In this document: positions 3,059-54,715 of the stretch, one piece after another | How the letters are laid out: each line of letters opens with the position of its first letter | How positions within the stretch are numbered: the first letter of the stretch is position 1 | Assembly (NCBI GenBank): GCA_043739185.1 | Contig: JAYUEN010000387.1 | Span: 27,518 to 91,517 of the forward strand | DNA from: Bdellovibrionales bacterium | GTDB taxonomy: Bacteria; Bdellovibrionota; Bdellovibrionia; Bdellovibrionales; JAMPXM01 | Direction: 5' to 3' | DNA length: 64,000 nucleotides | Program-made: the position numbers and the translations under genes | Notes under the pieces: generated by a model | Seen by the model: only the letters and a program-made list of their open reading frames with translations | Databases searched by the model: none | Told to the model about the DNA's origin: nothing

Positions 3059-4171
3059 CTAGTTTTTTAAATAAAGGACGGCATTTTCTGCGGGAGACAA
3101 TTCAGGGTCTGATATATGTTTAAAGGCCTCTTCGAGCTGTCCGCTTCTAAATGCACTAATAATTGCGGGATCAATATAAGAATTAAGAGCAACTGACGGC
3201 GTATTGTGAAGGCGCTCAGAGGCCTTTACAGCTGCGAGCTTTATGGCCTCATCTTGATTAGGCTCCTCTTGTGGGCCAAGAGAATGTAGCGTTTCAACGG
3301 CTTGAGTCGTTCCGACCCAAGTGCGAAAATCCTTGGCAGAGAATTGCGTTCCAATATGGTTTTTAATGTACTGATTAACCTCAGGTGCTTTTACGTCAAA
3401 CAGCCTTTCATCCGATCCTTTGGTGCTAACTTGGCCCTTCAAAACGCGGGCAATTGCTTTGTCATCGACGATGATATCTTGGGGAATTCCCTCTTTGGCA
3501 ATGAATTGAAAGCGCACTTTGGCTCCGCGAATTTGAACATGGTCCGCGCGCAAAGTTGTTAACCCAAAGGAAGGAAATTCGCCTTGGGCGTATTTTTCTC
3601 CGCCAATGCGAATTCCGCCAACTTCAAGCAATCGAACGACCGCTGCAATTTGTGAGTCCTGAAAACGCGCTGAACCTTGCAAATCTCGAGAAACAGCAAT
3701 TCGTAGTTTTGAAATAGCCTCTCCAAATTCCTTCATTCTCTCAAATTTAGCGGCGGCAAGTACCTTTTCATTCCAGTCCTCATGGTATCGATATTGTGCG
3801 CGAGCACGGCTATCTAGGGCCCTTGCCTGAATATGGGCAAGCGGGTCTTGAGCAATCCAAACTTGCGAATATCCGGGTGGAATTTTCAGTTCATTGATTC
3901 GTCTCAGGGTACTTGGATCTTGAACCACTTCACCTTGGTCAGTTTTATAAATAAAACTAACTTTATCTTCGGGCTTCGGCTGAGCAGCATTTTCGCGAAT
4001 ATAGCCTTTCCCGGGTGTCAACGAGTAGTGTAGACCTGAGGCCAAAGCCAATTGAACTGAGATCTCATGTTTGCTTAGGCTTTTAAATAGTGAAAGACAA
4101 GCGACGGGTGAGGCGAAACTCACCTGGCCAGAAAACACTAAGAGAAGGCTTAGAAATAAAAAACTTCGCAT
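3059..4171 (-). CDS. Bacterial type IB DNA topoisomerase with N-terminal signal peptide (start re-assigned to ATG 4171)
   Basis: IPPGYSQVWI, HIQARALDSRARAQYRYH, GIRIG, FIAKEG, SAKDFRTW, LHNTPSVALNSYIDP (catalytic Tyr). The longer ORF overlaps dbpA; Met94 begins a signal peptide. Confidence 0.9.
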   Translation of the reverse strand: MRSFLFLSLLLVFSGQVSFASPVACLSLFKSLSKHEISVQLALASGLHYSLTPGKGYIRENAAQPKPEDKVSFIYKTDQGEVVQDPSTLRRINELKIPPGYSQVWIAQDPLAHIQARALDSRARAQYRYHEDWNEKVLAAAKFERMKEFGEAISKLRIAVSRDLQGSARFQDSQIAAVVRLLEVGGIRIGGEKYAQGEFPSFGLTTLRADHVQIRGAKVRFQFIAKEGIPQDIIVDDKAIARVLKGQVSTKGSDERLFDVKAPEVNQYIKNHIGTQFSAKDFRTWVGTTQAVETLHSLGPQEEPNQDEAIKLAAVKASERLHNTPSVALNSYIDPAIISAFRSGQLEEAFKHISDPELSPAENAVLYLKN

Positions 4172-4184
4172 GATAAAGCCTGTT

Positions 4185-4200
4185 TGCGATCTCGATGCCA
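4185..4200 (-). promoter_or_regulatory. Putative sigma-54 promoter for topoisomerase IB
   Basis: TGGCATCGAGATCGCA (GG-N10-GC) just upstream of ATG 4171. Confidence 0.55.
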
Positions 4201-4370
4201 AAGGAGAGTTAAAATCGGAATCATTATAAAGCAGCGCAGGCCCCCTCGGCTTAAATTTAACTTTTTGTGTGACAAAATTCGTCGCTTGCAAAGATATTTT
4301 TTTCAATTTGGGTTTGCCTCTTCCCAGGTGCCTTTGGTCTTGATAATGATGAGAGTCAAAGAGGCAAACA

Positions 4371-5762
4371 TTGAATTCATCCCTATTTAGTTCCCTTCCT
4401 ATATCTGAAAAAATTTTGAAAGTAGTAGAGGAATTGGGATTTAAAGCCATGACTCCAATTCAAGAGCAGGCTCTGCCAATTTTACTCAGCGGACGCGATC
4501 TCATTGGTCAATCGAAAACAGGAAGTGGCAAGACCGCTGCTTTTGCGATACCGATTTTGCAAAAAATCGATCTTTCAAATCGCAGTCTTCAGGCAATTGT
4601 TATTTGTCCTACCAGAGAATTGAGTACGCAAGTGACGGGTGAATTTCGCAAGCTTGCCCGTAAGTTAGAGGGGCTTCAGGTTTTGAATTTATCGGGTGGA
4701 CAGCCCGCAAGACCGCAAATCGATGCGCTTCGTTTGGGAATTCATATTGCGGTAGGAACTTCAGGTCGAATTCTCGATCTACTCGATCGTAGAGAGCTGG
4801 ATTTTAGGAGCCTTAAAACATTGGTTTTAGATGAAGCGGATAAGCTTCTTGAATTGGGTTTTCAGGATGAAATCTCTGCAATTCTAGAGGCTCCAACGGC
4901 AAAGCGACAGACGCTTTTTATCTCAGCAACTTTTCCGGATGAGATAAAAAGCTTGAGCCTGCAATACCAAAAAAACCCTGTTCATCTTCGCATTGAGGAG
5001 GCGCTTGAAGGCGCAAATCTGATTGAAGAAATTGCCTATGAAGTGGGTGAAGAAGAAAAGTCAGACTTGCTATTACGAGTCTTGCAGCAACATCCCGCAA
5101 AGTCCGTACTTATTTTTTGCAATCAAAAGACCACAGTCGATGAGTTGATTCATTTAATAGAAAAAGACGAAGTGAGTTGTGCGGCATTGCATGGCAATTT
5201 AGAACAACGCGATCGACAACTAGTGATGGCGATGTTTCGTAATGGCAGTTATCGAATTTTAGTGGCGACAGATGTTGCGGCTCGAGGAATTGACATTGAT
5301 CACCTAGATTTGGTGATCAATTATGATTTTCCGATGAATGCAGAGGTTTATATACATCGAATTGGGCGAACCGGAAGGGCGGGTCGCGAGGGCGTTGCCG
5401 TCACCTTGGTAAAGCAGAATGAAGACTTGAAATTATTTGAAATTGAAAAATCTCGAGACAAACGACTCAGTCGTCCCAACTTGGGTTTCAAAAACCAACA
5501 TGGCTTAAGTTCCTACTATCGCGAATCGTCAATGAAAACCCTTTGGATTTCGGGTGGTCGTAAAGACAAGCTAAGACCAGGAGATATTTTAGGGGCCCTG
5601 ACAAGAGAAGGTGCGGGTTTGAAATCTTCAGAAATTGGCAAGATTGATGTCTTTGATAATATGTCCCTCGTGGCAATTGCCAGTAAAGAAGCCGGCCGAG
5701 CATTTGAAGAATTGCGTGTAGGTAAAATTAAGGGCCGAAAATTTCAAGTGCGTTTGATATGA
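4371..5762 (+). CDS. dbpA: ATP-dependent DEAD-box RNA helicase DbpA
   Basis: Q motif, TGSGKT, PTREL, DEAD, SAT, HRIGRTGR, C-terminal GGRKDKLRPGDILGAL RNA-binding domain; TTG start. Confidence 0.93.
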   Translation: MNSSLFSSLPISEKILKVVEELGFKAMTPIQEQALPILLSGRDLIGQSKTGSGKTAAFAIPILQKIDLSNRSLQAIVICPTRELSTQVTGEFRKLARKLEGLQVLNLSGGQPARPQIDALRLGIHIAVGTSGRILDLLDRRELDFRSLKTLVLDEADKLLELGFQDEISAILEAPTAKRQTLFISATFPDEIKSLSLQYQKNPVHLRIEEALEGANLIEEIAYEVGEEEKSDLLLRVLQQHPAKSVLIFCNQKTTVDELIHLIEKDEVSCAALHGNLEQRDRQLVMAMFRNGSYRILVATDVAARGIDIDHLDLVINYDFPMNAEVYIHRIGRTGRAGREGVAVTLVKQNEDLKLFEIEKSRDKRLSRPNLGFKNQHGLSSYYRESSMKTLWISGGRKDKLRPGDILGALTREGAGLKSSEIGKIDVFDNMSLVAIASKEAGRAFEELRVGKIKGRKFQVRLI

Positions 5763-6274
5763 GAATTGCAGTGGTCGGAAACGCTGCTGGCGGAAAAACA
5801 AAATTAAGTCGAAAATTAGGTGAGCGTTATTCGATTGGTGTAACCCATATTGATTCTATTCAATTCTTGCCAGGAATGATCATCCGTCCTCACGCAGAAA
5901 CTATTAAAACACTTAGGACGGTTGCTCTTAAGCAGAGTTGGATCATTGATGGTTATGGCCCTCTAGATATTATCGAAGAAAGATTTCTGATTGCGGACCA
6001 TATCATATTTATTGATCTCCCGGTGTGGCGCCATTTACTTTGGGCAGTGAAGCGCCAATTCGAAAATATTTTCAAAAAAAGAGCCGAGCTTCCCGAGAAT
6101 TGCAATGAACAAAAATTTTCTCATTTTAAAAAATTGTTGAAAAGCATTTGGGTTGCTCATCAAAAAATGCGACCTGAACTATTAAAGATCTTCAATCGAG
6201 AGCATCTGTTGCCAAAGCTGATCTGGGTTCGGAGCCTCAGTGATCTGAAAAAATTGTCCGAATCAGGAATCTAA
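5759..6274 (+). CDS. P-loop kinase-like protein (adenylate kinase-related / topology-modulation FlaR family)
   Basis: GNAAGGKT P-loop, HIDSI, WIIDGY, ADHIIFID. Confidence 0.8.
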   Translation: MRIAVVGNAAGGKTKLSRKLGERYSIGVTHIDSIQFLPGMIIRPHAETIKTLRTVALKQSWIIDGYGPLDIIEERFLIADHIIFIDLPVWRHLLWAVKRQFENIFKKRAELPENCNEQKFSHFKKLLKSIWVAHQKMRPELLKIFNREHLLPKLIWVRSLSDLKKLSESGI

Positions 6275-7024
6275 TTCTAGCTCTAACTGACGCTTTACCA
6301 AGCGCCTTAATTCTCTCTTTTGGGCCTCTGAAGTATTCAAAAACTTGAGTCCGACGCCGGGTGGATAATCGCCAAATTGTTTTTGACTGACCCGGATGAC
6401 TTGGGCCTGGCAGCGAAGCGTCTGCAATTGATCAAGTTTCAAATTGATTTCGAGTCTATCTAGTTCTTCAAACTCATCCATAATCTGATTGAGCGAATTG
6501 AATGTTAAGAAAACACCGGTATCAGATAGGTCAAAGGTAATGGCTCTTAGATGCTGATTTTTCGTTTCAATTTGTGCGGGAATCAAAAGCTCCGCTCTCG
6601 GGGATCGAGTCCACCAATGAAGCTTCGAGTTCTCTATTAGTTTCATTTGGCTTGGATGCAGAATCGGCACAAATATCGAAACCAGCGCCACACTGGCAAT
6701 TGTGGTTTCAAAAAATGAATAGTCAAGTGAGTCGAGGCCGACGAGCAGATTATTGAAAATACCCAACAAAGCAAAAGCCGGAATTGAGATTTTGAGTTGA
6801 GGATGAACTATAAAAGTTTGAATCGAAACGATGATTCCGGCTCCCATAAAGAGCAGATTATTCCAGGGCAATTGCTCGAAGGCTAAATTCATATCTCTTA
6901 GCGGATGTTCATAAAGCCACATCACTTGCGCCGGAATGCCAAGAATCAAGAGTAAAATAAGTGCACTCAATAAGTTAAAATAGATTGGCTTTTTATTCAT
7001 GAATCTCCTCACTGAAGCGATCAC
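6263..7024 (-). CDS. Membrane protein with C-terminal PilZ domain
   Basis: Four hydrophobic segments, then RSPR...DLSDTGVF...GVGLKF. Confidence 0.8.
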   Translation of the reverse strand: MIASVRRFMNKKPIYFNLLSALILLLILGIPAQVMWLYEHPLRDMNLAFEQLPWNNLLFMGAGIIVSIQTFIVHPQLKISIPAFALLGIFNNLLVGLDSLDYSFFETTIASVALVSIFVPILHPSQMKLIENSKLHWWTRSPRAELLIPAQIETKNQHLRAITFDLSDTGVFLTFNSLNQIMDEFEELDRLEINLKLDQLQTLRCQAQVIRVSQKQFGDYPPGVGLKFLNTSEAQKRELRRLVKRQLELELDS

Positions 7025-8162: not shown

Positions 8163-8240
8163 TCTAGAAAAATGTTTGAAAAAGTGCTTAATCTTTTTTC
8201 ATGCGAGATTCATTGGGTTGGGATGCTCTTGGGAGTGGTA

Positions 8241-8264
8241 CAGTTTTAACGGCAGCCGCCGCGG
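8241..8264 (-). repeat. Dispersed intergenic repeat, copy 1 (core only)
   Basis: CAGTTTTAACGGCAGCCGCCGCGG matches the core of the copies at 22095, 24468 and 53641. Confidence 0.65.
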
Positions 8265-8318
8265 TAAGTTTTGCAGCTTCGGCAGAGCGCCTACGAGACT
8301 GCATTTTGGCAAAAGCAC

Positions 8319-8334
8319 AGGCACAGGCTTTGCT
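8319..8334 (+). promoter_or_regulatory. Putative sigma-54 promoter for the C1B peptidase
   Basis: AGGCACAGGCTTTGCT (GG-N10-GC, near consensus). Confidence 0.65.
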
Positions 8335-8454
8335 CAGGTAGCTCTCGACCCATAAAAAAACTGTGTAACTTCGTTACAGATCTTGAATTAAGTGACAATT
8401 CTTGACATCGAAGCTGCGCAATTTGGGTCTAAAATCAATTGGAGGACTTTCCGT

Positions 8455-10017
8455 ATGGTGTTTTCGCAGCAACAATTAAGACTAGTTCAATTCACGTTTG
8501 CAATTGTTCTCTCCTCTAGCTTGGGTGTGAGCATGGCCTTCGCTGGCGGCGACCAATGCGAAAGCATCTTTGTTTCTACAAAGAGCAAAAGACAAATTGG
8601 CGTGAGCGAAGATTTTGTTGCCAAAATGCAGTCTCGTAGGCGCTCTGCTGCAGACAAAATGTTACAAAAATTTACCACGGAGAAGGGTCTTGCAGCACCC
8701 ATGAACACGAGCCCCAAACATGACAATAACTATAGTTTCGAACTCCCGGAAGGTACTATAAAGGATCAGCAAAGGTCAGGCCGTTGTTGGATATTTGCTT
8801 CTCTCACGGCCATTGAAAATTTTTATTTAGGCAAAGGCAATTTAATGCCAGACGCCGAGTTTTCAAGAACCTATCTGCAATTTTTTAATATGCTCGAGCG
8901 TTCAAGCTCGCATTTAGAAAAGGTAATTGATTTAAGAAGAAACTCACAGCGCATTAGCAGCTCTACAATCTTACAAAGGATTGCACCTAAGATCGCGGAC
9001 GGTGGCTATGTTGAAGATATTATCTTTTTAATTAAGAAATACGGCTTGGTCACCACAAGTGCAATGCCCGAAACTCTTAATTCATTGAACACCGACCTAT
9101 TGTTGGCTGAATTGAATTCTTATTTACAAGTTAAAAGTTATGAGATGTGGAATTTGTCTGAAAACTTCGACTCAGAGGCGCGTGCACTTCATGATCGTAT
9201 CGTGAGGGGTCAGGCTGAAAACACCACAAAATATGATAAGGTGAGTTTGCAGGCCCTAAGCGAAGCTCAATTGCAAATATTAGAAGCGAAAAAGGAAGAG
9301 ATATTAGGCGGAGTCTGGTTGATTCTTGAAAAAGCTCTGGGAACACCGCCGAAAACATTCACCGCTAAAGTACCAGTGACCAATCCCAAGACGGGCGTTG
9401 CTCAAACTAAAATTCGCAAATTTGAGCCGCAAAAATTTGTGACCGACTATATGAAATTTAATCCTGAGGATTGGATCAATGTTTCTAATTTGAGAAATCG
9501 TCCTCGTGATCAAGTTTATCAAGTTAAATACCAAGACATGAACCGTGTGATACGAAGACTCAATTTAGATCCGGTACGAATGATGAATTTGGTGAAAGCA
9601 CAATTAAAAGCGGGTATGCCAGTACCGTTCGATTCGAACTTTGGCCCAGGAGTCAATCGCAAGACAGGTGATATGGAGCCTGGAACCGATGACTTAAAGG
9701 GAATGTTTCCTTATAAACAAGGCCAAGCGCCTAGGCGCTTGAGTAAATCAGAATTGGATATTTTAGGAATTTTAACCGCTGATCACGAAACGGTTTTCAT
9801 GGGATATGATCAACCAGAAGGATATGCGAATCCAATAAAGTTCAAGGTTGAAAATTCATGGAGTGATCAATATGGCAACGGCGGGAACTTCAACCTATCG
9901 GCGCAATGGTTTGATTTGTATGTAGACGGGATTATGATTCATAAATCAATGCTATCTCCAGAGGAGCTTGCGATTTTCAATGGCAAGCCTATCATTTTAA
10001 AAGCAACTAATGAGTGA
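8455..10017 (+). CDS. C1B-family cysteine aminopeptidase (PepC/bleomycin hydrolase-like) with signal peptide
   Basis: DQQRSGRCWIFA (Gln, Cys), ADHETV (His), VENSW (Asn); GGAGG RBS before ATG 8455; signal peptide ends AFA. Confidence 0.88.
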   Translation: MVFSQQQLRLVQFTFAIVLSSSLGVSMAFAGGDQCESIFVSTKSKRQIGVSEDFVAKMQSRRRSAADKMLQKFTTEKGLAAPMNTSPKHDNNYSFELPEGTIKDQQRSGRCWIFASLTAIENFYLGKGNLMPDAEFSRTYLQFFNMLERSSSHLEKVIDLRRNSQRISSSTILQRIAPKIADGGYVEDIIFLIKKYGLVTTSAMPETLNSLNTDLLLAELNSYLQVKSYEMWNLSENFDSEARALHDRIVRGQAENTTKYDKVSLQALSEAQLQILEAKKEEILGGVWLILEKALGTPPKTFTAKVPVTNPKTGVAQTKIRKFEPQKFVTDYMKFNPEDWINVSNLRNRPRDQVYQVKYQDMNRVIRRLNLDPVRMMNLVKAQLKAGMPVPFDSNFGPGVNRKTGDMEPGTDDLKGMFPYKQGQAPRRLSKSELDILGILTADHETVFMGYDQPEGYANPIKFKVENSWSDQYGNGGNFNLSAQWFDLYVDGIMIHKSMLSPEELAIFNGKPIILKATNE

Positions 10018-10036
10018 TATTTTTGAAGTTAAATGT

Positions 10037-18936: not shown

Positions 18937-19950
18937 CTACTGTAAATGTGCAAGGCTTGGTTTCAGCATGAGGATGGCGCCTTTGCAGGTGAAATGGACG
19001 CCATCTCCCCAGTAGCTCACACTGCCATCATCGCCTGGAATCCCGGCGAAATAGTTTAAAATATGTATATTGGGGATTTGCAGCGCACTTAGCTTTTGTG
19101 CCCACTCTTGATGTGCCTTATAAATATTTGGATAATCTTCCTTTAGGCTTTTCATGAAGACTGGATTGTAGGGCGCAATTAATACATAAACCTCTATATT
19201 TTTTGTACTCAACAACGTCATTTTATTAACAAAGAGCTGCCAGTAGTGTTCTGAGGCGGGATGATTAAAAATCGAAAGTCGGTAGCGATCGAAATCGGTG
19301 ACAATATCTTTATTTAAGGCAGATGTTGTTTTCTCGCCAGGATAATTTGCACTTTCACAGCGCTCGTAATTTAAGTCATTGCCGCTGCCAAGATCTAATG
19401 CCTTTTGGTTCTTCTTTTTAAAACGAGCCACCGAAGCATTGAGCGTGAGATGATCAAAAAGTGAAGTCAATTTACTCTGCATCGATAGTGCATTGAGCTC
19501 AGGAAATTCAGAAGTAATATACTTGCCCAAAGCCTCTGTACTCTTCATTTTGACATCTAAGATCTCAGGAATGAGTTCAAAAAAATCAGCCTGCCAAATC
19601 ACTTTACGAATCGGGTTGTGAGCAAGAGCTATATTTAAAAAGGCAAATTTGGCTTGAAGCTCGGTGCCACCAACTGAAAGGTTCAAAGCGGGATGTCCGG
19701 TGATTTTCTCTAGCCAAATGGGCGAGGTCGTTTCACCTCGAGAGGAGCCCACCATTACCAATTCAGTTTTAGGATGAGCTAAAATAATTTGACCAATATG
19801 ATAGTAGGTGTTGACGTTGATAGTCGTCGTATCAATGCTTTTGCATCGATAGTAGCACATAGGATCAACGGCAAAATTAAAACTCGTGACCGCCAGAAAA
19901 AGTCCGCCGGCAATTATGAAAAAGCTAAATGTGGCTAAACGTGCATTCAC
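18937..19950 (-). CDS. SGNH-like / DltD-AlgJ-like periplasmic partner of MBOAT
   Basis: N-terminal anchor FNFAVDP, VGSSR, DGVHF (DxxH); directly downstream of the MBOAT gene. Confidence 0.65.
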   Translation of the reverse strand: MNARLATFSFFIIAGGLFLAVTSFNFAVDPMCYYRCKSIDTTTINVNTYYHIGQIILAHPKTELVMVGSSRGETTSPIWLEKITGHPALNLSVGGTELQAKFAFLNIALAHNPIRKVIWQADFFELIPEILDVKMKSTEALGKYITSEFPELNALSMQSKLTSLFDHLTLNASVARFKKKNQKALDLGSGNDLNYERCESANYPGEKTTSALNKDIVTDFDRYRLSIFNHPASEHYWQLFVNKMTLLSTKNIEVYVLIAPYNPVFMKSLKEDYPNIYKAHQEWAQKLSALQIPNIHILNYFAGIPGDDGSVSYWGDGVHFTCKGAILMLKPSLAHLQ

Positions 19951-19962
19951 AAAAATTTCATC

Positions 19963-21381
19963 CTAAAACTGAAAATACAAAAAAGGTGAATCTTCACTCA
20001 TAAACATTATGCAAACAATTAAAAGAAAAGCGATTCCGGCCGCAGTCCAAATATTAGTTCTAAACTTAACTTGCCAAGTATTCTTAGCATAAAAACTCAA
20101 AAAGAAAGCCACGATCAAAGCCGCTATGAAGCGGCTTTGATAGCGTTCGGCTGCGAATCTCAAATCCCAAGTAAGATGAGTATTTAACAAAAACACTTTT
20201 TCAAGCCATAAGAGTGCTACTGAAAAACTGGGAGCTCTGAAAAAAACCCAGCCTATATTAATTAATAAAAAGGTGAGAGCGAACTTTAAATATTTATTTT
20301 GGATGCCTTTGTAATTTCGGTCTTTGCAGAAGCGCTCGGTCGCCAATAGGCAGCCGTGAAAGCCACCCCAGATTGCGTAAGTCCAATTGCCTCCGTGCCA
20401 AAGTCCACCAATCATCATGGTTAAGAATAAATTGCGATAGGTTTTAATTTGGCTACCGCGATTTCCGCCGAGAGAGATATACAAATAGTCTTTTAGCCAA
20501 GAAGACAAGCTGATGTGCCAACGTTGCCAAAATTCTGTAATTGAAAAAGACTTATAGGGTGAATTGAAATTTTGAGGAAAATCAATATTCATCATCAGGC
20601 CGAGGCCGACAGCCATATCTGAATAGCCGCTGAAATCAAAATAAAGCTGCATGGTATAGCCAAGCATTGCCAAAATGGCTTCGCTATTTGAAGCAAGTTT
20701 TAGATTGTCTACAACCGGAATAACGACTGCTGAAAGCATATCAGCGAGCAGAATCTTTTTTGAAAGTCCGCAGACAAAAAAGCAAATTCCTCGCCAAAAA
20801 TTCTCAAAATTAAAAATATAAGTCTTTGGGCTTTCAAGCTGGGGAACAATTTGATTGTGCCTTACAAGGGGGCCTGAAATTTGATGGGGAAAAAGTGTCA
20901 CATAGCCAGCAAAGGACAAGAGGTCGGCATGTGCATCAGAGGTGCCACGATAAACATCAATGACGTAGGACATACTTTGAAAGGTGTAGAATGAAATGCC
21001 GATTGGCAAAACAATTGAAAGAATCGGTAGCCCAGTGATCGGTGCTCCGTGAAGAAGACTCGCAAGTGAGTTCAAACTATCTGCAAATAAATTATAATAT
21101 TTGAAAAAAAACAAAATCGATAAATTGATAATAACAGAAAATAAAAGCAAAAGACGTTTGCGATATTTGGTTTCAGAATTATAAATTCCGCGCGCAACGT
21201 AAAAGTCGACAATGACGGTGAAAATTAAAAAGAAAACAAGTTTGGCGCTCCAATAGCTATAAAAACCAAGGCTTGCCAATAACAAAAAAGTGAGCTGCGC
21301 CCGACGTTTTGGTATGAGATAGTAGCCTAAAAGTACCATTGGCAAAAAGCCAAAGATAAAAATATATGAATTAAAGAGCAT
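19963..21381 (-). CDS. MBOAT-family O-acyltransferase (AlgI/DltB/PatA-like)
   Basis: MLFNS, LPIGISFYTFQSMSY, YFDFSGYSDMA, FWQRWHISLS, GLWHG, FLYFQF. Confidence 0.95.
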   Translation of the reverse strand: MLFNSYIFIFGFLPMVLLGYYLIPKRRAQLTFLLLASLGFYSYWSAKLVFFLIFTVIVDFYVARGIYNSETKYRKRLLLLFSVIINLSILFFFKYYNLFADSLNSLASLLHGAPITGLPILSIVLPIGISFYTFQSMSYVIDVYRGTSDAHADLLSFAGYVTLFPHQISGPLVRHNQIVPQLESPKTYIFNFENFWRGICFFVCGLSKKILLADMLSAVVIPVVDNLKLASNSEAILAMLGYTMQLYFDFSGYSDMAVGLGLMMNIDFPQNFNSPYKSFSITEFWQRWHISLSSWLKDYLYISLGGNRGSQIKTYRNLFLTMMIGGLWHGGNWTYAIWGGFHGCLLATERFCKDRNYKGIQNKYLKFALTFLLINIGWVFFRAPSFSVALLWLEKVFLLNTHLTWDLRFAAERYQSRFIAALIVAFFLSFYAKNTWQVKFRTNIWTAAGIAFLLIVCIMFMSEDSPFLYFQF

Positions 21382-26713: not shown

Positions 26714-26774
26714 ACAGCATTTGCACCCGAAAAATATTTGAGAATGGGTGGCCTTGATGGGCAATCGATTGAGA

Positions 26775-29072
26775 ATGTATTTAAATTTTAAACTTTTTGC
26801 ACTTCGTCTTCTGATCGGAGTTTTTTGTATGCTTTTCAAAAGTATGGCCTTTGCGACCATAACAATTCACGAAATTAAAGCCAATGAAGATATACAAACT
26901 TATTTAAATAGAACTGCGGGTAACGTTGATGCCACTTCCTTTCGCCAAATCTTAGGCGCTGCTTCAGATTTTAAAGAAGGCGATGAGAGTATTGGTCTGA
27001 GTGCTCATGATGAGGTTTCGCGCCAAAGAGCAAGACAGTTGCTCGCAAACACGAAGGTCCTTGCATTAGTTGAAAGTTCATACCTCGGCTCAGATTCGCA
27101 AGAGCAAATGATTCGCTCTTCAATAGACACCCCAATTTATAAATCGTTGCGGGATAAAAGCGTAGGCGAACTCAAAAGCTTTTTGCTGGGGGCTTCTGAG
27201 TTCGAGATCAAGAAAATCATGCCGGGACTTCACAGTGATGTAATTGCAGCGCTTGTAAAACTTATGTCAAATGAAGAGCTCATACAAATTGGACAGAAAG
27301 TTTTCAATCCATTGCCAAATAGTTCGATCGGAAAAAAAGGATATTTAAGTGCACGGCTTCAACCCAACTCCTCGACCGATCATCCTGGTGACATTCGCTG
27401 GCAGGTTTTCAATGGCTGGGCATTTGGCGTTGGGGACCTCATGTTGGGAAGCAATCCGGCTTCAAGTACCCCTGAAATTGTTCATCGGACGGAATTGCTT
27501 TTAAAAGACCTCGTCGAAAGCTTTGGCCTACGAGACGTACTTCCTTGGACAGTGCTTTCACATATAGATATTCAAAATACTGTTGAGCAAAAAGATCCGG
27601 GCAGTACGCGATTGTGGTTTCAAAGTATTGCTGGGAACGATGAGACCAATGCTGTTTTTGGAACTTCAGCCGCCAGCTTGATGGAGTATGCAAGAAAGCG
27701 AAAGGGCCAAAATTTTGGTTTGTACCTCGAGGCAGGACAAGGATCGGAAGTTACCAACGGGCACAGCAATGGACTTGATATGGGCACTCTCGAATCACGA
27801 AAGTACGGCTTGGCGCGGGCTTTAAAACACGCCCAAGGTGGAGAAAAATCTTGGATGGTAGTTAACGACGTCGCAGGATTTATCGGGCCTGAAGTCTTTC
27901 GTAGCAAAGAGCAGCTGGTTCGAGTGGCGCTCGAAGATACGGTAATGGGAAAATTGCATGGCCTGACAATGGGGCTAGATATTTGCTCGACCTTTCATAT
28001 GCCAATTACTCCAAAGGATTTACGCTGGGCAATTGATCACATCATGCCGGCCAATCCGGCCTATTTGATGGCGTTGCCAACGCACAATGATCCCATGCTG
28101 AGTTACAACACGACGCCCTTTCAAGAGCATTTAAGAATTCGCCAGAAGTTTAAATACAAATATGATGAAAGAATGAAAGCGTTTTTTATTAGATTGGGAA
28201 TAATCGATATTGGCGGAGAGCCAACGGAGCACTTTGGTGATCCAATTTGGGTTTACTATCAATATCAAAAAACTCGTGGTGTAACTCAGAGTTATTCTGA
28301 ATTTAAAAAACGGGCAGAAATTGAAATGCAAGAAGTGCAAAGACGTGGAGTGGCTTTATCGATTGGCTTTGGCAAAAATGTTTGGGATTTTAATGCAGAC
28401 CTTGATCGTTCACTTGAAGCTTTAGATGCAGCTGCCAGAGCCAGCATTCATGCCCCGTTAAATGCTGATTTCTTAACGAAATACTTTCCGAACTCCTTGC
28501 AATTGAATACTCAATCTGAAAATCGCGATCAATATTTGTCGAAGCCAATTTCGGGTGAGACTTTGTCCGAATTTTCGAAGGCGCAACTCTTGAAATTAAA
28601 TATCGGATCAAGTGATGTCATTCTGGTCATTTCGGATGGACTCAATTCAGATTCACTGATGGATGCAGGACATTTAGAGCCCTATCTCCAAGAGTTGAAA
28701 TTGCAATTGCAGAATCGCGGGCTCAAAATTCATCCTGATCCGATAATTGTTCACAATGCCAGAGTGCGAGTTTCCTATCGCATTGGTGAAGAACTATTTG
28801 CTCATTTCACTCAGACGGATCAAATCAAGTCTGTGATCAATATTGTCGGGGAGCGTCCCGGTAACGGGCACAATACTTATTCGGCATATCTTGCAACGGC
28901 AAGCGTGAGTGCATGGAAAGAAAAAAATCATGACCATGATCGCACCGAACTCGTATCTGGAATTTCAGATACATCTCTTGAGCCAAGACAAGCGGCTCAA
29001 GACAGTGTCGAGAAGATATTACTCAAAACTCAATTCATTCTCGGTAAGCAATGCATCGCTTTGTTCAACTGA
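26775..29072 (+). CDS. eutB-eutC: Fused ethanolamine ammonia-lyase (EutB-EutC) with predicted signal peptide
   Basis: EutB motifs ARLQPN, EAGQGS, VAGFIGPE, EDTVMGKLHGLTMGLDICST; EutC motifs ISDGL, ARVR, VGERPG; N-terminus ends AFA. Confidence 0.85.
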   Translation: MYLNFKLFALRLLIGVFCMLFKSMAFATITIHEIKANEDIQTYLNRTAGNVDATSFRQILGAASDFKEGDESIGLSAHDEVSRQRARQLLANTKVLALVESSYLGSDSQEQMIRSSIDTPIYKSLRDKSVGELKSFLLGASEFEIKKIMPGLHSDVIAALVKLMSNEELIQIGQKVFNPLPNSSIGKKGYLSARLQPNSSTDHPGDIRWQVFNGWAFGVGDLMLGSNPASSTPEIVHRTELLLKDLVESFGLRDVLPWTVLSHIDIQNTVEQKDPGSTRLWFQSIAGNDETNAVFGTSAASLMEYARKRKGQNFGLYLEAGQGSEVTNGHSNGLDMGTLESRKYGLARALKHAQGGEKSWMVVNDVAGFIGPEVFRSKEQLVRVALEDTVMGKLHGLTMGLDICSTFHMPITPKDLRWAIDHIMPANPAYLMALPTHNDPMLSYNTTPFQEHLRIRQKFKYKYDERMKAFFIRLGIIDIGGEPTEHFGDPIWVYYQYQKTRGVTQSYSEFKKRAEIEMQEVQRRGVALSIGFGKNVWDFNADLDRSLEALDAAARASIHAPLNADFLTKYFPNSLQLNTQSENRDQYLSKPISGETLSEFSKAQLLKLNIGSSDVILVISDGLNSDSLMDAGHLEPYLQELKLQLQNRGLKIHPDPIIVHNARVRVSYRIGEELFAHFTQTDQIKSVINIVGERPGNGHNTYSAYLATASVSAWKEKNHDHDRTELVSGISDTSLEPRQAAQDSVEKILLKTQFILGKQCIALFN

Positions 29073-33551: not shown

Positions 33552-34631
33552 TTAGTTCTGCATTTCCTCAAGTAACTTCTTCAATATTAAGTTCTGTTGC
33601 TCATCCGTTACTAAGTGTAACTTGTCACTATTGGCTTTGGCACGGATGGCAATTGCATCGAGTAGCGAAGCAAGGCGAATGCCTCCGGTAATGAGTTGTG
33701 ACTCAATGACTGACTTCACATTTTTAGTCACATAATCAGTTGGTAATACCTGGGCATCGGAGTCAGCAAGAGTGGTCGCTGAAGATTCTCCAAGCGTTCC
33801 CTTGGTTTGGTCTGAATACCAACGGCAATAGCTTCGTTTTCGATAAGCCTGGGGATCGCCATTTAAATTGTCTGGGTAGATGCTCTCACGTAGTTGTGCT
33901 GAGGAGTCAAGCCAGCCACTCACTCTTTGCCCCAAGTCTTTTGAAAAACTAATGTCGTCGCTTGTGTTTAGAGTAATTTTACTTGCATTGAATTTATCTG
34001 TGGCTTTGGCCTTCATAGCGGAAATAAATTGTGGGTAATAGCTTAGTGGTTTGGTATTGTTATCTGCTTTATAGGTTTCGCCCAATTTTAGTACGAGTTC
34101 AGTATCCCAAAATGAATGAAAATTGAGGGGCTTACTTTTTTCGTTTAATTTTATGCGGCACTCATTGCCGCCGCGATCATAGCCATTGCCAACGTGTAAA
34201 GGTTGGTGAATGTCGCCTACAATATGAATCAAATATCGAAGTGCTATGAGCTTTTCTTCAGGTGTACTTTCATTAGCTTGAATCAATATTTTACTTGCAC
34301 CAACTATGGCGCCATAGGCGTCTTTAGGATCTTTATTGGGTCTATTGGCAAATGTAAATCCTGTAGGAATTTCTGAAAAATGAAAGGGAGCAAAATCAGA
34401 ATCTCGACTTGAAAAGCGGGCGTCGTCGCGGACGTGGTCCGGCCAATTCGCGGCAACTGCCACAGGCTCTATGCCTAAAATGCCGCGTACAAAGTCTTTG
34501 GTCTCAGCTTGCATGCGCTCTTCAGCCACAGCCCCAACAATTTGATGGCCGAGATCTCCCCAGGCCAAAGCTGAATTTATTTTTAGCAAAGTCAAAGTCA
34601 GGATAAAAACAATTTTCATAGAATTCTCCAT
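33552..34631 (-). CDS. Secreted S1/P1 nuclease
   Basis: ALA|WGDLGH, WPDHVR, HIVGDIHQPLH, DRGGN, HSFWD zinc motifs. Confidence 0.93.
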   Translation of the reverse strand: MENSMKIVFILTLTLLKINSALAWGDLGHQIVGAVAEERMQAETKDFVRGILGIEPVAVAANWPDHVRDDARFSSRDSDFAPFHFSEIPTGFTFANRPNKDPKDAYGAIVGASKILIQANESTPEEKLIALRYLIHIVGDIHQPLHVGNGYDRGGNECRIKLNEKSKPLNFHSFWDTELVLKLGETYKADNNTKPLSYYPQFISAMKAKATDKFNASKITLNTSDDISFSKDLGQRVSGWLDSSAQLRESIYPDNLNGDPQAYRKRSYCRWYSDQTKGTLGESSATTLADSDAQVLPTDYVTKNVKSVIESQLITGGIRLASLLDAIAIRAKANSDKLHLVTDEQQNLILKKLLEEMQN

Positions 34632-47695: not shown

Positions 47696-47709
47696 GTGAA
47701 AGTTAACTT

Positions 47710-47934
47710 ATGGCCGAAGAAGAAAAATCCGTTGAAAGTCAAAATTTTTGGACAAGCTTACCGTCTGGAGTCCGCTATTATATTTACTTCAGTGTTTTGG
47801 TATGTTCAGGCGTGGCTTGTGCGAATCATTTGGGATGGTTCCCAACTTACGGAATATTCTCTGGCGAAAACTCAATGCATTCACGTTATCACAGTAGCTA
47901 CTATCACGGTGGCTACGGAATTCATGGCAAATAA
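47710..47934 (+). CDS. Small membrane protein of the DUF4178 operon
   Basis: One TM segment and a His/Gly/Tyr-rich tail ending HGK; fills the operon gap. Confidence 0.6.
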   Translation: MAEEEKSVESQNFWTSLPSGVRYYIYFSVLVCSGVACANHLGWFPTYGIFSGENSMHSRYHSSYYHGGYGIHGK

Positions 47935-47949
47935 AATCAGGAGGTTTGA

Positions 47950-48168
47950 ATGGAAATTTTAATTAATCCGGTAAACATAATAAACGCTGTCATCTACTCG
48001 TGTTTAGGGCTATGTCTTTTTGCCTTAGGCTTTTGGCTGATTGATCGCTTTACTCCTTATCATCTCTGGAAGGAAGTCATCGAAGAGAAAAATATTGCTC
48101 TGGCAATTGTGGTCGGCGCAATTTCAATCGGTATCTGCAATATCATCGCGGCGGCCCTCAATGGCTAG
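47950..48168 (+). CDS. DUF350-family membrane protein
   Basis: DRFTPYHLWKEVIEEKNIALAI; GGAGG RBS. Confidence 0.9.
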   Translation: MEILINPVNIINAVIYSCLGLCLFALGFWLIDRFTPYHLWKEVIEEKNIALAIVVGAISIGICNIIAAALNG

Positions 48169-48178
48169 CTCTTAATTA

Positions 48179-51321: not shown

Positions 51322-52453
51322 TCAAGCTCGCAATCAGCCCCAAAATCAGGCCCAAAATCAGGCCCAAAATCAGCCATGGATTCATTCGGCAGCATTTGAC
51401 CTCAGCCTAATTTTGGGCCCGTCCTTAATGGCTTGTTTAATCGTGCTGCTTTTTAATAAAGGTTTTGAACAACATCATGCTGTAGGTCCTATGGCGTGGA
51501 TTATTCTTGTCGTTTGCATTGATGTCGCACATGTTTACTCTTCAATTTTTAGAACCTACGGTGACTCAGATATGCAAGCGCGCAGTCTTCTTTGGCTTGT
51601 TCCTCTTCTTTGTTGGGGTTTTGGCTCCGTCCTATATTCATTAGGACCTCACATTTTTTGGGCGGGTTTGGCATATATAGCGGTTTTTCACTTCATACGC
51701 CAGCAATACGGTTTTGCAATGATCTATGCTCGTGGAGAGCGAGACTATCCATCGTATTTTAAGCAACTCGATCGCGTTAGTATTTATGCTGCGACCATTT
51801 ACCCTCTGGTTTTCTGGCATACGCATTTACCGCGAAATTTCAATTGGTTTCTCGAAGGTGACTTCATCGGATTTTCTTTTCCGGAAGCGAGCCGGATCGC
51901 TGGCTGGATTTATATTTCGATTTTGGTATCTTATACTATCAAAGAGTTTTGGATTGTACTTCAATATAAGTATTTCAATATTCCGCGGAACTTAATTGTC
52001 ATCAGTACAGCACTTTCTTGGTATGTTGGCATAGTTTGGCTGAACAATGATTTGGCGTTTACACTAACAAATGTTGTATCGCATGGAATTCCTTATATGG
52101 CACTCGTTTGGCTCTACGGCAATAAAAACAAAAATTCAAAAAGTCTAAAGTTACGGGGAAAATCACTTTTCAGTTTACCTATGATCCCAGTCTATATCGG
52201 GATACTCGTACTTTTGGCCTATCTCGAAGAAGGTTTGTGGGACGCTTTTGTTTGGCGAGATCATATGCGGTTTTTTTCGATCTTTTCTGACCTGCCGATC
52301 ATTCAAGACCGCCTCGTCCTGGCATTGCTGGTCCCGCTTCTGGCTTTGCCACAATCTACACATTATATTTTTGACGCTTTTCTTTGGCGAGTGAGAGGCA
52401 AAGACAGTGGATGGAAAAATGTGCTGCTAAAACCCCTGGAGGTAAAGCAATGA
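51308..52453 (+). CDS. Conserved polytopic membrane protein with His motifs
   Basis: DVAHVYS, FHFIRQQYG, SHGIPY, THYIFDAFLW; multiple TM segments. Confidence 0.8.
   Translation: MISVNQARNQPQNQAQNQAQNQPWIHSAAFDLSLILGPSLMACLIVLLFNKGFEQHHAVGPMAWIILVVCIDVAHVYSSIFRTYGDSDMQARSLLWLVPLLCWGFGSVLYSLGPHIFWAGLAYIAVFHFIRQQYGFAMIYARGERDYPSYFKQLDRVSIYAATIYPLVFWHTHLPRNFNWFLEGDFIGFSFPEASRIAGWIYISILVSYTIKEFWIVLQYKYFNIPRNLIVISTALSWYVGIVWLNNDLAFTLTNVVSHGIPYMALVWLYGNKNKNSKSLKLRGKSLFSLPMIPVYIGILVLLAYLEEGLWDAFVWRDHMRFFSIFSDLPIIQDRLVLALLVPLLALPQSTHYIFDAFLWRVRGKDSGWKNVLLKPLEVKQ
51332..51375 (+). repeat. 12-bp coding tandem repeat (NQ[P/A]Q)
   Basis: AATCAGCCCCAA AATCAGGCCCAA AATCAGGCCCAA AATCAGCC. Confidence 0.85.
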
Positions 52454-52604
52454 GTGAATTTGAAAGTGAGCCAGTTTTCACATGCGGCTTGATACCTTTT
52501 TTCGAAATCAAAGGGAGGGCAAATATTGAAAGAGCAAAGCCGCCAGCTAGAGCATGCGCTAAAATTAACCAGCGAATTGGGTTTCCTAGAATTAAAAATT
52601 TCAT
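52450..52604 (-). pseudogene. N-terminal fragment of a DUF2306-like membrane protein
   Basis: AHALAGGFAL...PLISKKG..HVKTG, then the frame runs into the convergent gene; GGAGAGG RBS. Confidence 0.5.
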
Positions 52605-52622
52605 TTCAGCCTCTCCAATTAA

Positions 52623-53003
52623 TTAATCATCAAAAATTCTAAAACGATTTTTCAGAATATGAGTCGACATCTCAATAAACATTTTAACCGCGGGTGAAAC
52701 ATATCTCTGTGCAGGATAAACAAAATGAACCGGACTCTTGTTGGAGCGCCAGTCCTCTAATACGCGAACCAGCCTTCCTGATTTTAGTTCGGCTTGACAT
52801 AAAAAAGATGGTAAAAGAGAAATGCCCTCGCCTTGCAAGGTGAAATTAAGTGCGAGGTTGATATCATTAACGATTATTTTTCCGGGTAACTGAACGATGA
52901 CTGAGCGTTTGGCACTTTGAAGCCGCCATTCAGAAGTCGAGATCGGACTAAAGAGAATACAGTCATGCGTCTCGAGATCTTTTGGACTCATTGGTGTGCC
53001 GCG
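52623..53003 (-). pseudogene. 5'-truncated LysR-family regulator (substrate-binding C-terminal part only)
   Basis: RGTPMSPKDLETHDC, GEGISLLP, SGRLVRVLEDW, VYP; no HTH domain; abuts the yceI RBS. Confidence 0.75.
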
Positions 53004-53020
53004 AGATAACGGAGGATATT

Positions 53021-53551
53021 ATGTCAATCTACAAACTCGATCCTATGCACTCAACAGTTGCCTTTAGTGTTAAGCATATGATGATTGCAAAAGTTCACGG
53101 CGCATTTGAAAAGCTTGCAGGCGAGCTTACTTTTGATCAAGCCCATCCCGAAAAGTCAAAAGCCGAAGCTGTGATCGAAGCTTCAAGTATTAATACTCGC
53201 GAAGTTCAAAGAGATGCTCACTTAAAAAGTGCCGACTTCTTTGATGTTGAGAAGTATTCAACACTTAGTTTTAAATCAACTGGGGTTCGTATTTCTGGCG
53301 ATGGCGAGCTTAAAGTAAGTGGGGAACTTTCAATCAAAGGAATTTCTAAACCCATCGAACTCAATGTCGAGGGTCCCAGCGCCGAACTCAAAGACCCTTT
53401 TGGAAATATTAAAATTGGTCTTTCTGCGAGTACCAAGATCAAGCGCAAAGATTTCGGCCTCACTTGGAATGCAGCGCTTGAAACCGGAGGGGTCCTCGTA
53501 GGAGATGAAGTGACCATAACTCTCGATTTGCAATTTGCAAAACAAGTTTAA
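53021..53551 (+). CDS. yceI: YceI-family protein
   Basis: DPMHSTVAFSVKH, RDAHLKSADFFDVEKY, RKDFGLTWN; GGAGG RBS. Confidence 0.95.
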   Translation: MSIYKLDPMHSTVAFSVKHMMIAKVHGAFEKLAGELTFDQAHPEKSKAEAVIEASSINTREVQRDAHLKSADFFDVEKYSTLSFKSTGVRISGDGELKVSGELSIKGISKPIELNVEGPSAELKDPFGNIKIGLSASTKIKRKDFGLTWNAALETGGVLVGDEVTITLDLQFAKQV

Positions 53552-53640
53552 AAATTGTGGCGTTTAAAGGTGCGATCTTTTTTAAGTATGGATAAATTCA
53601 GGGTCAGGCAGCTGCCACGACAGTTAGCCGCAACGGACCC

Positions 53641-53706
53641 AGAACCAGAGACCGAAATAGCTTAACTGCCAACCGCTGCGGCTGCCGTTAAAACTGATTT
53701 GAATTC
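53641..53706 (+). repeat. Dispersed intergenic repeat, copy 4 (inverted relative to copies 1-3)
   Basis: Reverse complement reads GAATTCAAATCAGTTTTAACGGCAGCCGCAGCGG...CTATTTCGGTCTCTGG. Confidence 0.8.
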
Positions 53707-53732
53707 CTATCAAAGATTAAATTCAGTCACAA

Positions 53733-53748
53733 TGGCCTGGCAGATGCA
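53733..53748 (+). promoter_or_regulatory. Putative sigma-54 promoter
   Basis: TGGCCTGGCAGATGCA (GG-N10-GC). Confidence 0.45.
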
Positions 53749-53848
53749 TTGATTTGTTTATATGAGAATCAAATGGGCTGGTAGTGAATTTCGGACCTTA
53801 ACACTGTCAATTGTGTCGACAGTTGCAAGACCAAATTTGGCTAAGAGC

Positions 53849-54715
53849 ATGGGGCCCTATTTGAGTGGCCTTTGCTTTATTGAGTTTTGCTTGGTTTTCC
53901 TATGTCTTTTTAATACTCATGTCTATGCGCAAACCTTAGAATGCCGAAATTTATTTTACCCAAAATCTGAGTGGGATTTAAAAGCGGCGCGGCTTGAAAC
54001 AGATAAATTTGAAATCATATCAAGCGTTGATCCTGAAACTCAAATTGCGACAGAAGCTCTGATTGATAGCTTTTCGAAAAGTTATGGTCAAGATGCCTTT
54101 CGAGTAATCCTTACCGGAAACGCAAGAGGCAAAATTGGCATTATCGGAGATTTGCCGCCACAAATTGCAGCGGTCTTCAATGCTCATCTCACAAAACTGA
54201 GCGAGTATTTCACAGCGCGTTTTCCAAAGAAAAAAATTTTTTTTAATAGCGCTGAAATTCGCATTAGCGATGATGGGCATTTTGATGTTGCTCATTTACA
54301 TCTCGATTACGGTGGCTTTGGTGATTCGACTTATTCAACCTCAACCAATTTTAACTCTTCTGGAGTCGGAACTTTGGTAGCAAGCTCAAATAATATTGTC
54401 AAAATATCTGAGAGTAAAAACCCCGAGAATTTATTGCCTCTTGAGTATCGCGATGCAAATAAAAATTGGGCGCCAGTTCCTGATTATGGAGTTGATCCCC
54501 TTCACTTAAAGCAGTTAGAAGTTGGAGAGACCTTGATAATTAATAGATCACGAGGCGGCGGAATAACTTCAGAGCGAAGAATAGATGGGCGTGATGGGAT
54601 TGAAGCCCAACGAAGGGCCATCTTTGAAAGTGGTCCCTGGCATGCAAGCCCAGCCTTGTTGCCTGTGACTAAACCAAGAAGATTTTGGATAGGCGTAGTT
54701 ATTAGTGTCGAATAA
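53849..54715 (+). CDS. Exported hypothetical protein, possible 2OG-Fe(II) oxygenase fold (start uncertain; ORF open from 53762)
   Basis: Signal peptide ending VYA; HLD (HxD), WHASP, RRFW motif order. Confidence 0.55.
   Translation: MGPYLSGLCFIEFCLVFLCLFNTHVYAQTLECRNLFYPKSEWDLKAARLETDKFEIISSVDPETQIATEALIDSFSKSYGQDAFRVILTGNARGKIGIIGDLPPQIAAVFNAHLTKLSEYFTARFPKKKIFFNSAEIRISDDGHFDVAHLHLDYGGFGDSTYSTSTNFNSSGVGTLVASSNNIVKISESKNPENLLPLEYRDANKNWAPVPDYGVDPLHLKQLEVGETLIINRSRGGGITSERRIDGRDGIEAQRRAIFESGPWHASPALLPVTKPRRFWIGVVISVE

Follow-up and report, generated by a model that had tools for sequence, protein, structure and literature searches.

We report a short and portable peptide tag, the five-residue motif C-x-x-[L/I/V]-F, which is a genuine feature of the order Bdellovibrionales and is present close to the N-terminus or at the C-terminus of proteins predicted to be exported through Sec. 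It was noticed in a 64,000-nucleotide stretch of the genome of a Bdellovibrionales bacterium (GenBank assembly GCA_043739185.1, contig JAYUEN010000387.1, positions 27,518 to 91,517 of the forward strand; hereafter the window), in which four proteins carry it. Our preferred reading, to which we assign a probability of roughly 0.55, is that the tag is a sorting or tethering handle used after Sec export, which would act through a free thiol on a shared and co-evolving factor; within this reading we infer the recognition by a reader, the chemistry of the thiol and the destination.

Translation confirmed all four motif positions that had been proposed from the sequence alone, and the start of each of the four carriers looks like a Sec-type signal peptide by the heuristic described below. 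The features are:

3059..4171, minus strand: gene for an exported DNA topoisomerase IB (Pfam Topoisom_I and Top1B_N_bact)
4112..4171, minus strand: predicted signal peptide of topoisomerase IB, MRSF...VSFA, 20 amino acids (n-h-c/AxA heuristic)
4085..4099, minus strand: tag CLSLF of topoisomerase IB, Cys at +5 of the predicted mature chain (translation)
8455..10017, plus strand: exported PepC/bleomycin-hydrolase-type C1 peptidase (Pfam Peptidase_C1_2)
8455-8544, plus strand: predicted signal peptide of the C1 peptidase (heuristic)
8557..8571, plus strand: tag CESIF of the C1 peptidase, Cys at +5 (translation)
26748..29072, plus strand: exported EutB-EutC fusion, ethanolamine ammonia-lyase (Pfam EutB and EutC)
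29052..29066, plus strand: C-terminal tag CIALF of the EutB-EutC fusion, followed by N and the stop codon (translation)
53849..54715, plus strand: exported protein of open reading frame (ORF) 53849, without a family in Pfam or NCBIfam
53849-53929, plus strand: predicted signal peptide of the ORF 53849 protein (heuristic)
53942..53956, plus strand: tag CRNLF of the ORF 53849 protein, Cys at +5 (translation)

The true start of the topoisomerase IB gene is the ATG at 4169-4171, the ORF that runs to 4450 being an upstream extension, and equivalent signal peptides are present in its orthologues in three related genomes (G002, G028 and G040). The signal peptide of the EutB-EutC fusion is predicted to end at 26855, and no Pfam or NCBIfam model matched the ORF 53849 protein. 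In an AlphaFold2 (AF2) model of the mature topoisomerase IB (42-sequence alignment), the mean predicted local distance difference test score (pLDDT) is 93 and residues 1-9, which include the tag, have a pLDDT below 50, suggesting that the tag sits on a flexible extension outside the fold.

The assembly that holds the window (4.85 Mb in 540 contigs, the window being on contig C387) gave 4,634 genes with a greedy ORF caller. Signal peptides (SPs) and their cleavage sites were predicted using an n-h-c/AxA heuristic of our own, not SignalP, and all cleavage sites are approximate. Genes with an ORF that reaches far upstream of the true start, e.g. that of topoisomerase IB, are overlooked by this pipeline and the tag counts are therefore lower bounds. 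Genome-wide, C..[LI]F (dots denote any residue) occurs 205 times; 21% of these occurrences lie 15-45 residues after a start codon together with a hydrophobic stretch, and 10% lie at most 12 residues from the C-terminus. For 13 control motifs the corresponding shares were 0-18% at the N-terminus and 0-18% at the C-terminus, mostly 6-13% and 0.5-4%, respectively, the highest being that of C..MF with 2 of 11 occurrences only. When 5,885 gapped triplets of the form a..bc were compared over mature residues 1-16 of 1,760 SP-like proteins, C..LF ranked first (27 observed vs 1.95 expected, p = 9e-22; runner-up pattern p = 7e-7), and in internal control windows of the same proteins it was seen 2, 2 and 0 times; with an interior-only background, the N-terminal tag was observed 31 times vs 2.09 expected. 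In SP proteins, C..[LI]F lies at most 12 residues from the C-terminus 15 times, with 1.39 expected (p = 3e-11); for non-SP proteins the count is 5 and the expectation 2.27, i.e. the C-terminal enrichment is confined to SP proteins. A comparison of this kind with background had been put forward in the sequence-only reading as the way to check its motif, and with the heuristic SP calls it returned a strong excess at both termini.

Only Cys is enriched at tag position 1, and at position 4 only Leu (27) together with some Ile (4), while positions 2 and 3 favour E/K/R and D/A/S, giving the consensus C-[E/K/R]-[D/A/S]-L-F. Over the full list of carriers in this genome, position 4 is Leu in 43, Ile in 9, Met in 3 and Val in 2. 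The N-terminal tag follows the predicted cleavage site by 1-12 residues, usually 3-5; the frequency of Cys has its maximum at +5 of the mature chain (3.4% vs a background of 1.14%), and in 21 higher-confidence N-terminal tags the Cys is at +1 to +8, mostly at +4 or +5. The exact +5 register first described holds, with heuristic cleavage sites, for the three N-terminal cases of the window, but +5 is the mode and not a rule. In the C-terminal tags (n = 15) the Phe is followed by no residue (2 cases), one (10), two (1) or four (2), which places the Cys at positions 5 to 9 counted from the end, mostly at 6.

The carrier list, compiled with C..[LIVM]F, comprises 35 N-tagged and 22 C-tagged proteins. 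A Sec type I SP was called heuristically in the 35 N-tagged and in 17 of the 22 C-tagged proteins, and is visible in the alignment of the N-termini. These 57 carriers fall into 51 BLAST clusters, with five small paralogue groups among them, and their SPs are mutually 9-30% identical (alignment of 30 N-termini), which bears out the earlier description of a portable terminal motif on Sec-exported proteins. Pfam revealed no N-terminal domain on the 54 carriers scanned. Moreover, the codons used for the tag are varied (all six Leu codons, both Cys codons and both Phe codons), which argues for selection at the peptide level; an element acting as RNA or DNA in place of a peptide is ruled out by the diverse codons together with the C-terminal copies. 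The tagged genes tend to cluster: four consecutive ones, three of which are paralogues, are located at G000:C148:507-5917 (L007-L010), and other contigs hold two to five tagged genes each.

Comparison of orthologues gives good support for the view that exported versions retain the tag and that cytoplasmic ones are without it. For topoisomerase IB in 41 genomes, the tag was present in 3 of 3 SP-bearing copies and in 0 of 7 SP-less copies, a tally that excludes one ORF cut at its N-terminus and one partial. The tagged orthologues have CESLF (G002), CSELF (G040) and CEYLF (G028), of which the last two come from another family of the order and are 32-34% identical; CQSLF, CSSIF and CRDVF are further tag forms of the exported enzyme. 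Nine of the best 120 homologues in a large protein collection have a SP, and the Cys is present in 9 of 9 and [LIV]F in 6 of 9, with the variants CEDFL, CIKAL and CEDLL in the other three. Among the first 26 of the 120, whose N-termini were inspected, the SP-less proteins have no such Cys motif, and in the other 94 C..[LIVM]F is absent from the first 110 residues. Each of the six close orthologues of the C1 peptidase (47-72% identity) combines a SP with Cys at +5 (CVNAF, CGNLF, CVDLF, CVNMF, CMDLF and CADLF), a combination absent from two distant homologues. One close orthologue of the EutB-EutC fusion (same genus, 69% identity) has a SP and ends in ...GRCETLFK* with diverged flanks, and a SP-less fusion of another genus (G011) has no tag. 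Finally, the ORF 53849 protein has only two homologues among 5.8 billion proteins, one with a SP and CPELF and the other with CEDFY.

In the distant exported orthologues P0012, P0015, P0172 and P0174 the Cys is kept and the hydrophobic pair varies (CEDFL, CEDLL, CEDFY and CVNAF), and these forms may be further lineage-specific dialects of the tag. A secreted topoisomerase IB and a secreted EutB-EutC fusion of the adenosylcobalamin (AdoCbl) type are odd in themselves, whatever the role of the tag, and the relatives hold exported clades of both enzymes beside ordinary cytoplasmic versions.

The spread of the tag was followed with a hidden Markov model (HMM) made from 30 N-termini with SP and tag of the same genome (alignment A1), which retrieves non-training members of that genome at E-values of 0.002-0.08. 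Being trained on L-type tags, it under-detects V-type tags. At E ≤ 0.05 there were matches in 32 of 40 relatives, with 9-13 in three genomes of the same genus, 18 in G033, 9 in G017, 8 in G015, and 7 each in G028 and G021, and 25 of the 29 best loci inspected show AxA-x(2-4)-C-x-x-[LIV]-F. At E ≤ 0.003 matches were found in 22 of the 40 relatives (same family or order) and, in a separate set of 150 genomes of the phylum, in 9 of 23 within the order and 7 of 127 outside it, where only 3 of the 7 are canonical. By these matches the tag is spread over the order Bdellovibrionales and rare elsewhere in the phylum Bdellovibrionota. Three genomes outside the order, G132, G047 and G129 (L104, L108 and L110), hold one canonical-looking protein each with SP and tag (CRQLF, CESVF and CEELF), which may reflect either chance or sporadic spread. 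Tag-bearing genomes include Bdellovibrio bacteriovorus, Bdellovibrio sp. and Pseudobdellovibrio exovorus, and the named tagged proteins there are annotated as 'hypothetical protein' or by domain only, i.e. FAD/NAD(P)-binding (with a member in strain HD100), C1 family peptidase, TPM domain and EEP hydrolase.

In B. bacteriovorus the tag has a different fourth position. We sampled 2.4 of 3.77 Mb of its genome as 120 pieces of 20 kb, which were analysed separately with the same pipeline, and found C..VF at 5 N-termini and 3 C-termini of SP proteins vs 0.52 expected (p = 8e-8), while C..LF occurred 0 times at either terminus in the 2.4 Mb; the contrast at position 4 with the genome of the window is significant (Fisher p = 3e-7). 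The N-terminal C..VF pattern alone ranks sixth of 4,622 (p = 1e-4), and the case for it relies on both termini combined and on a prior hypothesis. The joint change from L to V at both termini implies that the N- and C-terminal forms are one signal, as had been supposed from the window, and points to a co-evolving reader; a lineage-specific reader of the tag appears to be the simplest explanation. Carriers in B. bacteriovorus include a 769-residue Fic/DOC protein, a C1 peptidase, an ABC1 kinase-like protein and a Peptidase_C26 protein, and for two of its carriers no solved relative was found in the PDB.

Short motifs recur by chance, and with five small paralogue groups and some C-terminal cases that look fortuitous the whole pattern could in principle be an artefact of chance or composition, of a shared N-terminal cassette or of paralogy. 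The first rank among 5,885 patterns with its p-value of 9e-22, the 51 clusters, the unrelated SPs and the diverse codons all argue against this, as do the orthologues at 30-50% identity that keep the tag while the flanks diverge and the independent replicate in B. bacteriovorus with V replacing L, and we regard an artefact as having a negligible probability. The concerted change would also suit a single reader of another kind, i.e. a periplasmic protease or quality-control factor for which the tag would be a degron or processing site setting the timing or level of its carriers. A short, hydrophobic and accessible terminal motif would fit such a role, and a C-terminal Phe plus one residue recalls the motifs of PDZ-domain proteases; on the other hand, an invariant Cys is not a trait of known periplasmic degrons, the motif is functional at both the N- and the C-terminus, and retention on more than 50 proteins across the order would need a regulatory rationale for which there is no support here. 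This explanation is in our view highly unlikely.

In 24 of 35 N-tagged and 6 of 22 C-tagged proteins (53% overall) the mature chain contains no Cys other than that of the tag, and the share of single-Cys proteins among 1,292 other SP proteins with at least one Cys is 19%. An odd number of Cys residues is found in 77% of the N-tagged and 59% of the C-tagged proteins vs 41%. Among 14 tagged proteins from other genomes, eight have one Cys and four have three, of which the count for P0134 is unreliable because the regex match fell inside the SP. That the tag Cys is mostly the only one of the mature chain lends indirect support to a role for it, and the Cys counts suggest that it is unpaired. An unpaired Cys might also serve as a redox or assembly element, forming a homodimer or a reversible disulfide; the tag would then not be a sorting signal, and the enzymes would stay latent or stable in the periplasm of the predator up to their arrival in a reducing environment. 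A single Cys is unusual in exported proteins and systematic here, and latency of nuclease, PLD, Fic and peptidase activities would be sensible for a predator. Yet five residues on a flexible tail are unlikely to inhibit 51 unrelated folds, and the strict L-F together with the genome-wide switch to V-F indicates a common reader and not self-association, which leaves the redox element rather improbable.

Among known systems the lipobox, processed by Lgt, LspA and Lnt, is similar in being a Cys-centred motif after a Sec SP on many unrelated exported proteins. The tag differs in that it is without the [LVI][ASTVI][GAS]C consensus (S precedes the Cys in 5 cases, T, M and E in 4 each, V, R, I and Q in 3 each, A and L in 2 each, and D in 1), in that its Cys follows an AxA-type site by 1-12 residues, whereas the lipobox Cys comes first after the hydrophobic core, and in its C-terminal copies, the lipobox being N-terminal only. 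Identity with the lipoprotein signal is refuted by the absent consensus, the spacing of the Cys and the C-terminal copies. A lipid anchor of another kind, in which the Cys would be S-acylated or otherwise lipidated without a lipobox and would hold the protein on the outer membrane or on vesicles with L-F aiding insertion, has more in its favour: the Cys is invariant, apparently unpaired and beside two hydrophobic residues on a flexible terminus, a terminal anchor would be workable at either end, and one carrier (g3598) is already a lipoprotein, with a C-terminal tag. We nevertheless consider it unlikely, given that no lipobox precedes the Cys, that C-terminal copies are unusable by Lgt and LspA, that cargo in need of ATP, acetyl-CoA or AdoCbl is not obviously explained and that the sole acyltransferase candidate tested is not co-distributed with the tag. 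This candidate is an MBOAT acyltransferase of the window (19966-21381), which together with a membrane-anchored partner without a family forms a pair at 18940-21381 (minus strand) that is 79-82% identical in the same genus. As a thiol acyltransferase for the tag it was rejected: it was not found in the tag-rich genomes G033, G015 and G034 and is present in G010, G014, G031 and G036, in which the search for the tag gave no match.

The PEP-CTERM, GlyGly-CTERM and MYXO-CTERM signals (exosortase, rhombosortase and myxosortase, respectively) are likewise lineage-specific portable tags on diverse exported proteins, and MYXO-CTERM carries an invariant Cys. In these sorting signals, found only at the C-terminus, 20-30 residues comprise a signature motif, a transmembrane helix and a basic cluster, whereas the tag has five residues, 0-4 residues after the Phe, no helix and a place at either end. 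A CTERM-type sorting domain is excluded by the 0-4 residues that follow the tag, and no NCBIfam sorting model matched the 30 N-terminal tags or the tagged EutB-EutC fusion. The likeness to the host-targeting motifs PEXEL of Plasmodium (RxLxE/Q/D) and RxLR of oomycetes, which lie some tens of residues after the SP, is one of logic only, i.e. a short motif after the SP marks diverse effectors. Both direct sets of effectors beyond the producer into another cell, PEXEL being cut by plasmepsin V; they are unrelated to the tag in sequence and organisms, contain no Cys and have no C-terminal version, and with its consensus the tag does not belong to either. Loading peptides of encapsulins and microcompartments are short peptides at either terminus of unrelated enzymes, read by one shell protein, as the tag would be by its reader; they are amphipathic helices without Cys on cytoplasmic proteins and the tag carriers are Sec-exported. 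The CaaX box also has a Cys near the C-terminus followed by aliphatic residues. It requires the Cys exactly fourth from the end, and the position of the tag Cys in C-terminal copies, together with the N-terminal location of most copies, excludes it. In AB toxins such as diphtheria and cholera toxin, enzymatic cargo is joined to a carrier by one disulfide and freed by reduction in the target cytoplasm. This is a possible working principle for the tag, suggested purely by the presumed unpaired Cys, with the difference that one handle would here serve dozens of cargos and that there is no known B-type partner.

Some of the carriers may be regulated together. Sigma-54 promoters have the form GG-N10-GC, located 12-24 nucleotides (nt) upstream of the transcription start, and need rpoN and enhancer-binding proteins. 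Besides rpoN, the genome encodes about 22 proteins that strongly match the sigma-54 activator domain of enhancer-binding proteins. Elements with GG-N10-GC were scored up to 220 nt upstream of genes against the consensus TGGCAC-N5-TTGCW with 11 specified positions, and two candidates precede carriers in the window:

8319..8334, plus strand: candidate sigma-54-like -24/-12 element AGGCACAGGCTTTGCT upstream of the C1 peptidase, AGGCAC-N5-TTTGCT, score 10/11
53733..53748, plus strand: weaker candidate sigma-54-like element TGGCCTGGCAGATGCA upstream of ORF 53849, score 8/11

No sequence of the window matches the strict consensus, and the elements at topoisomerase IB (6/11) and at the EutB-EutC fusion are weak. 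Thus, where the sequence-only reading had placed a sigma-54 motif upstream of the three N-tagged carriers, that of the C1 peptidase is good, that of ORF 53849 moderate, and that of topoisomerase IB weak. An element scoring at least 8 was found ahead of 27 of the 58 tagged genes. The corresponding numbers are 256 of 1,708 for the remaining genes with a SP (p = 3e-8) and 531 of 4,576 for all other genes, i.e. candidate sigma-54-like elements are about three to four times enriched upstream of tagged genes; about half of the carriers are without one. Among tagged loci from other genomes of the order (n = 48), 15 had an element scoring at least 9 on the coding strand and 1 had one in the reverse-strand control (p = 2e-4). 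Elements scoring at least 9 precede secreted proteins generally, 144 of 245 such genes having a SP, and 75 untagged genes after strong elements code mostly for small secreted proteins with no function assigned and, judged without a Pfam scan, include no obvious machinery.

The neighbourhoods of the tagged genes were also compared. In the genome of the window the only neighbours that recur beside tagged genes are TIGR02147 regulators, pseudopilins and ABC ATPases. Helix-turn-helix (HTH) proteins of the TIGR02147 family, of which the genome has 33 paralogues (e.g. G000:C286:4469-5278, C355:1042-1854 and C388:6223-7059; L273-L275), are found within three genes of tagged genes 7 times for 58 such genes vs 1.65 expected (p = 0.002), and they may be local regulators of these genes. 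Beyond one three-ORF cluster at two Bdellovibrio loci, no recurrent neighbour family was seen at 70 tagged loci of other genomes, and a motif scan found no exported monothiol thioredoxin-like proteins. No NCBIfam model matches the 30 tag N-termini, and on the four window carriers NCBIfam gave nothing beyond EutB/EutC. The full-text literature searched, with subscription journals outside its scope and including passages of PMC12622784, holds no description of the tag, and in those passages of the PopA paper (PMC12228718) that were searched the word 'cysteine' does not appear. Hence the tag is covered by no Pfam or NCBIfam model and by no paper within the literature searched.

What the carriers do is suggested by Pfam, which gave a match at E ≤ 0.001 for 17 of 54 scanned carriers. 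The families are GNAT, phytochelatin-synthase-like, PLD, polysaccharide lyase, C1 peptidase, SnoaL-like, S1/P1 nuclease, M48 peptidase, FG-GAP, metallophosphoesterase, beta-helix and circularly permuted ATP-grasp, in addition to a cytidylyltransferase with a kinase-like region and an AAA protein that lacks a SP; the remaining three of the 17 are fatty-acid-hydroxylase-like (under Pfam's cut-off), beta-propeller (weak) and Mgr1-like (weak and under the cut-off). The suggestion that the tag marks exported versions of normally cytoplasmic enzymes stands for topoisomerase IB, the EutB-EutC fusion and the PepC-type peptidase, and the tag is not confined to enzymes of cytoplasmic type. Similarly, the S1/P1 nuclease, beta-lactamase-like hydrolase and amidohydrolase of the window are indeed untagged, as first described, but this does not extend to the genome, where a paralogue of the nuclease is tagged. 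Specifically, the window nuclease (33555-34631, minus strand) has a SP and no tag, and its paralogue at G000:C8:1882-2928 (L033) has the C-terminal tag CEAMF. In the S1/P1 nuclease family the mature N-terminal Trp is a zinc ligand, which would explain the C-terminal placement. Many of the enzyme types among the carriers depend on ATP, acetyl-CoA, AdoCbl or DNA, consistent with activity in the cytoplasm of another cell, and it is from these needs and from the lifestyle of the order that prey is considered as a possible destination.

Taken together, we suggest the following course for the preferred reading, in which the tag is a handle read after Sec export. The carriers would cross the inner membrane via Sec with the tag on a flexible extension, and a shared factor that co-evolves with the lineage would recognise the hydrophobic [L/V]-F. 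The unpaired tag Cys would then link covalently to that factor, most likely as a disulfide. In this way effector-like enzymes, partly co-regulated by sigma-54-type promoters, would be gathered for a step beyond the predator periplasm, plausibly delivery to or into prey. A more specific version is a two-step effector pathway in which dozens of enzymes would be joined, via a disulfide of the tag, to one common carrier or translocator, be brought by it out of the predator and through the prey inner membrane, and be freed in the reducing prey cytoplasm; this we put forward tentatively, as a possibility with the odds against it. A pathway of this kind, if true, would amount to a modular AB-toxin system in which one handle serves universally, with implications for the way in which predator enzymes arrive in the prey cytoplasm. 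We know of no described mechanism by which these predators bring nucleases, proteases and further enzymes across their outer membrane to the prey cytoplasm, and in the literature searched such a route is neither described nor named as an open question.

Several observations weigh against the reading of the tag as a thiol-dependent handle for effector enzymes. No reader, carrier or modifying enzyme was found in the neighbour, MBOAT and thioredoxin-like scans, and about a quarter of the N-tagged proteins have an even number of Cys residues, such that their tag Cys could pair within the chain. The picture of effector enzymes comes from a minority of carriers, 37 of the 54 scanned having no Pfam match, and ordinary extracellular hydrolases (S1/P1 nuclease, polysaccharide lyase and M48) are among them, so a destination in the prey cytoplasm is not required for every carrier. 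The SP heuristic and the gene caller are crude, and with its loose threshold the heuristic labels 38% of genes as SP-like. Chance probably accounts for a few C-terminal cases, including the AAA protein without a SP, and in B. bacteriovorus a glutamate membrane symporter among the carriers is likely a false positive. Two Cys-rich pilin-like proteins that lie beside pseudopilin genes end in CGRIFN (G000:C285:604-1275 and C470:3805-4473; L043 and L049), and these ends probably form a disulfide-looped C-terminus of another type, whose match to the pattern would be fortuitous. Finally, 8 of the 40 relatives have no HMM match at E ≤ 0.05, and in family f6 a match at E ≤ 0.003 was present in 1 of 11 genomes.

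For the biology of these predators, the tag is found on 10 to 50 or more effector-like exported enzymes in each genome and so gives a list of candidate prey-directed effectors, most of which are annotated as hypothetical. It is a handle for finding the reader or carrier and possibly a tool for directing engineered cargo; as it occurs in the form C-x-x-V-F in the genetically tractable B. bacteriovorus, the idea is directly testable. The switch from L to V at both termini in one lineage is a rare natural experiment that favours a dedicated reader, and the link to sigma-54-type promoters suggests a regulon not described for these predators in the literature searched. The tag could thereby help to explain how predator enzymes enter their prey.

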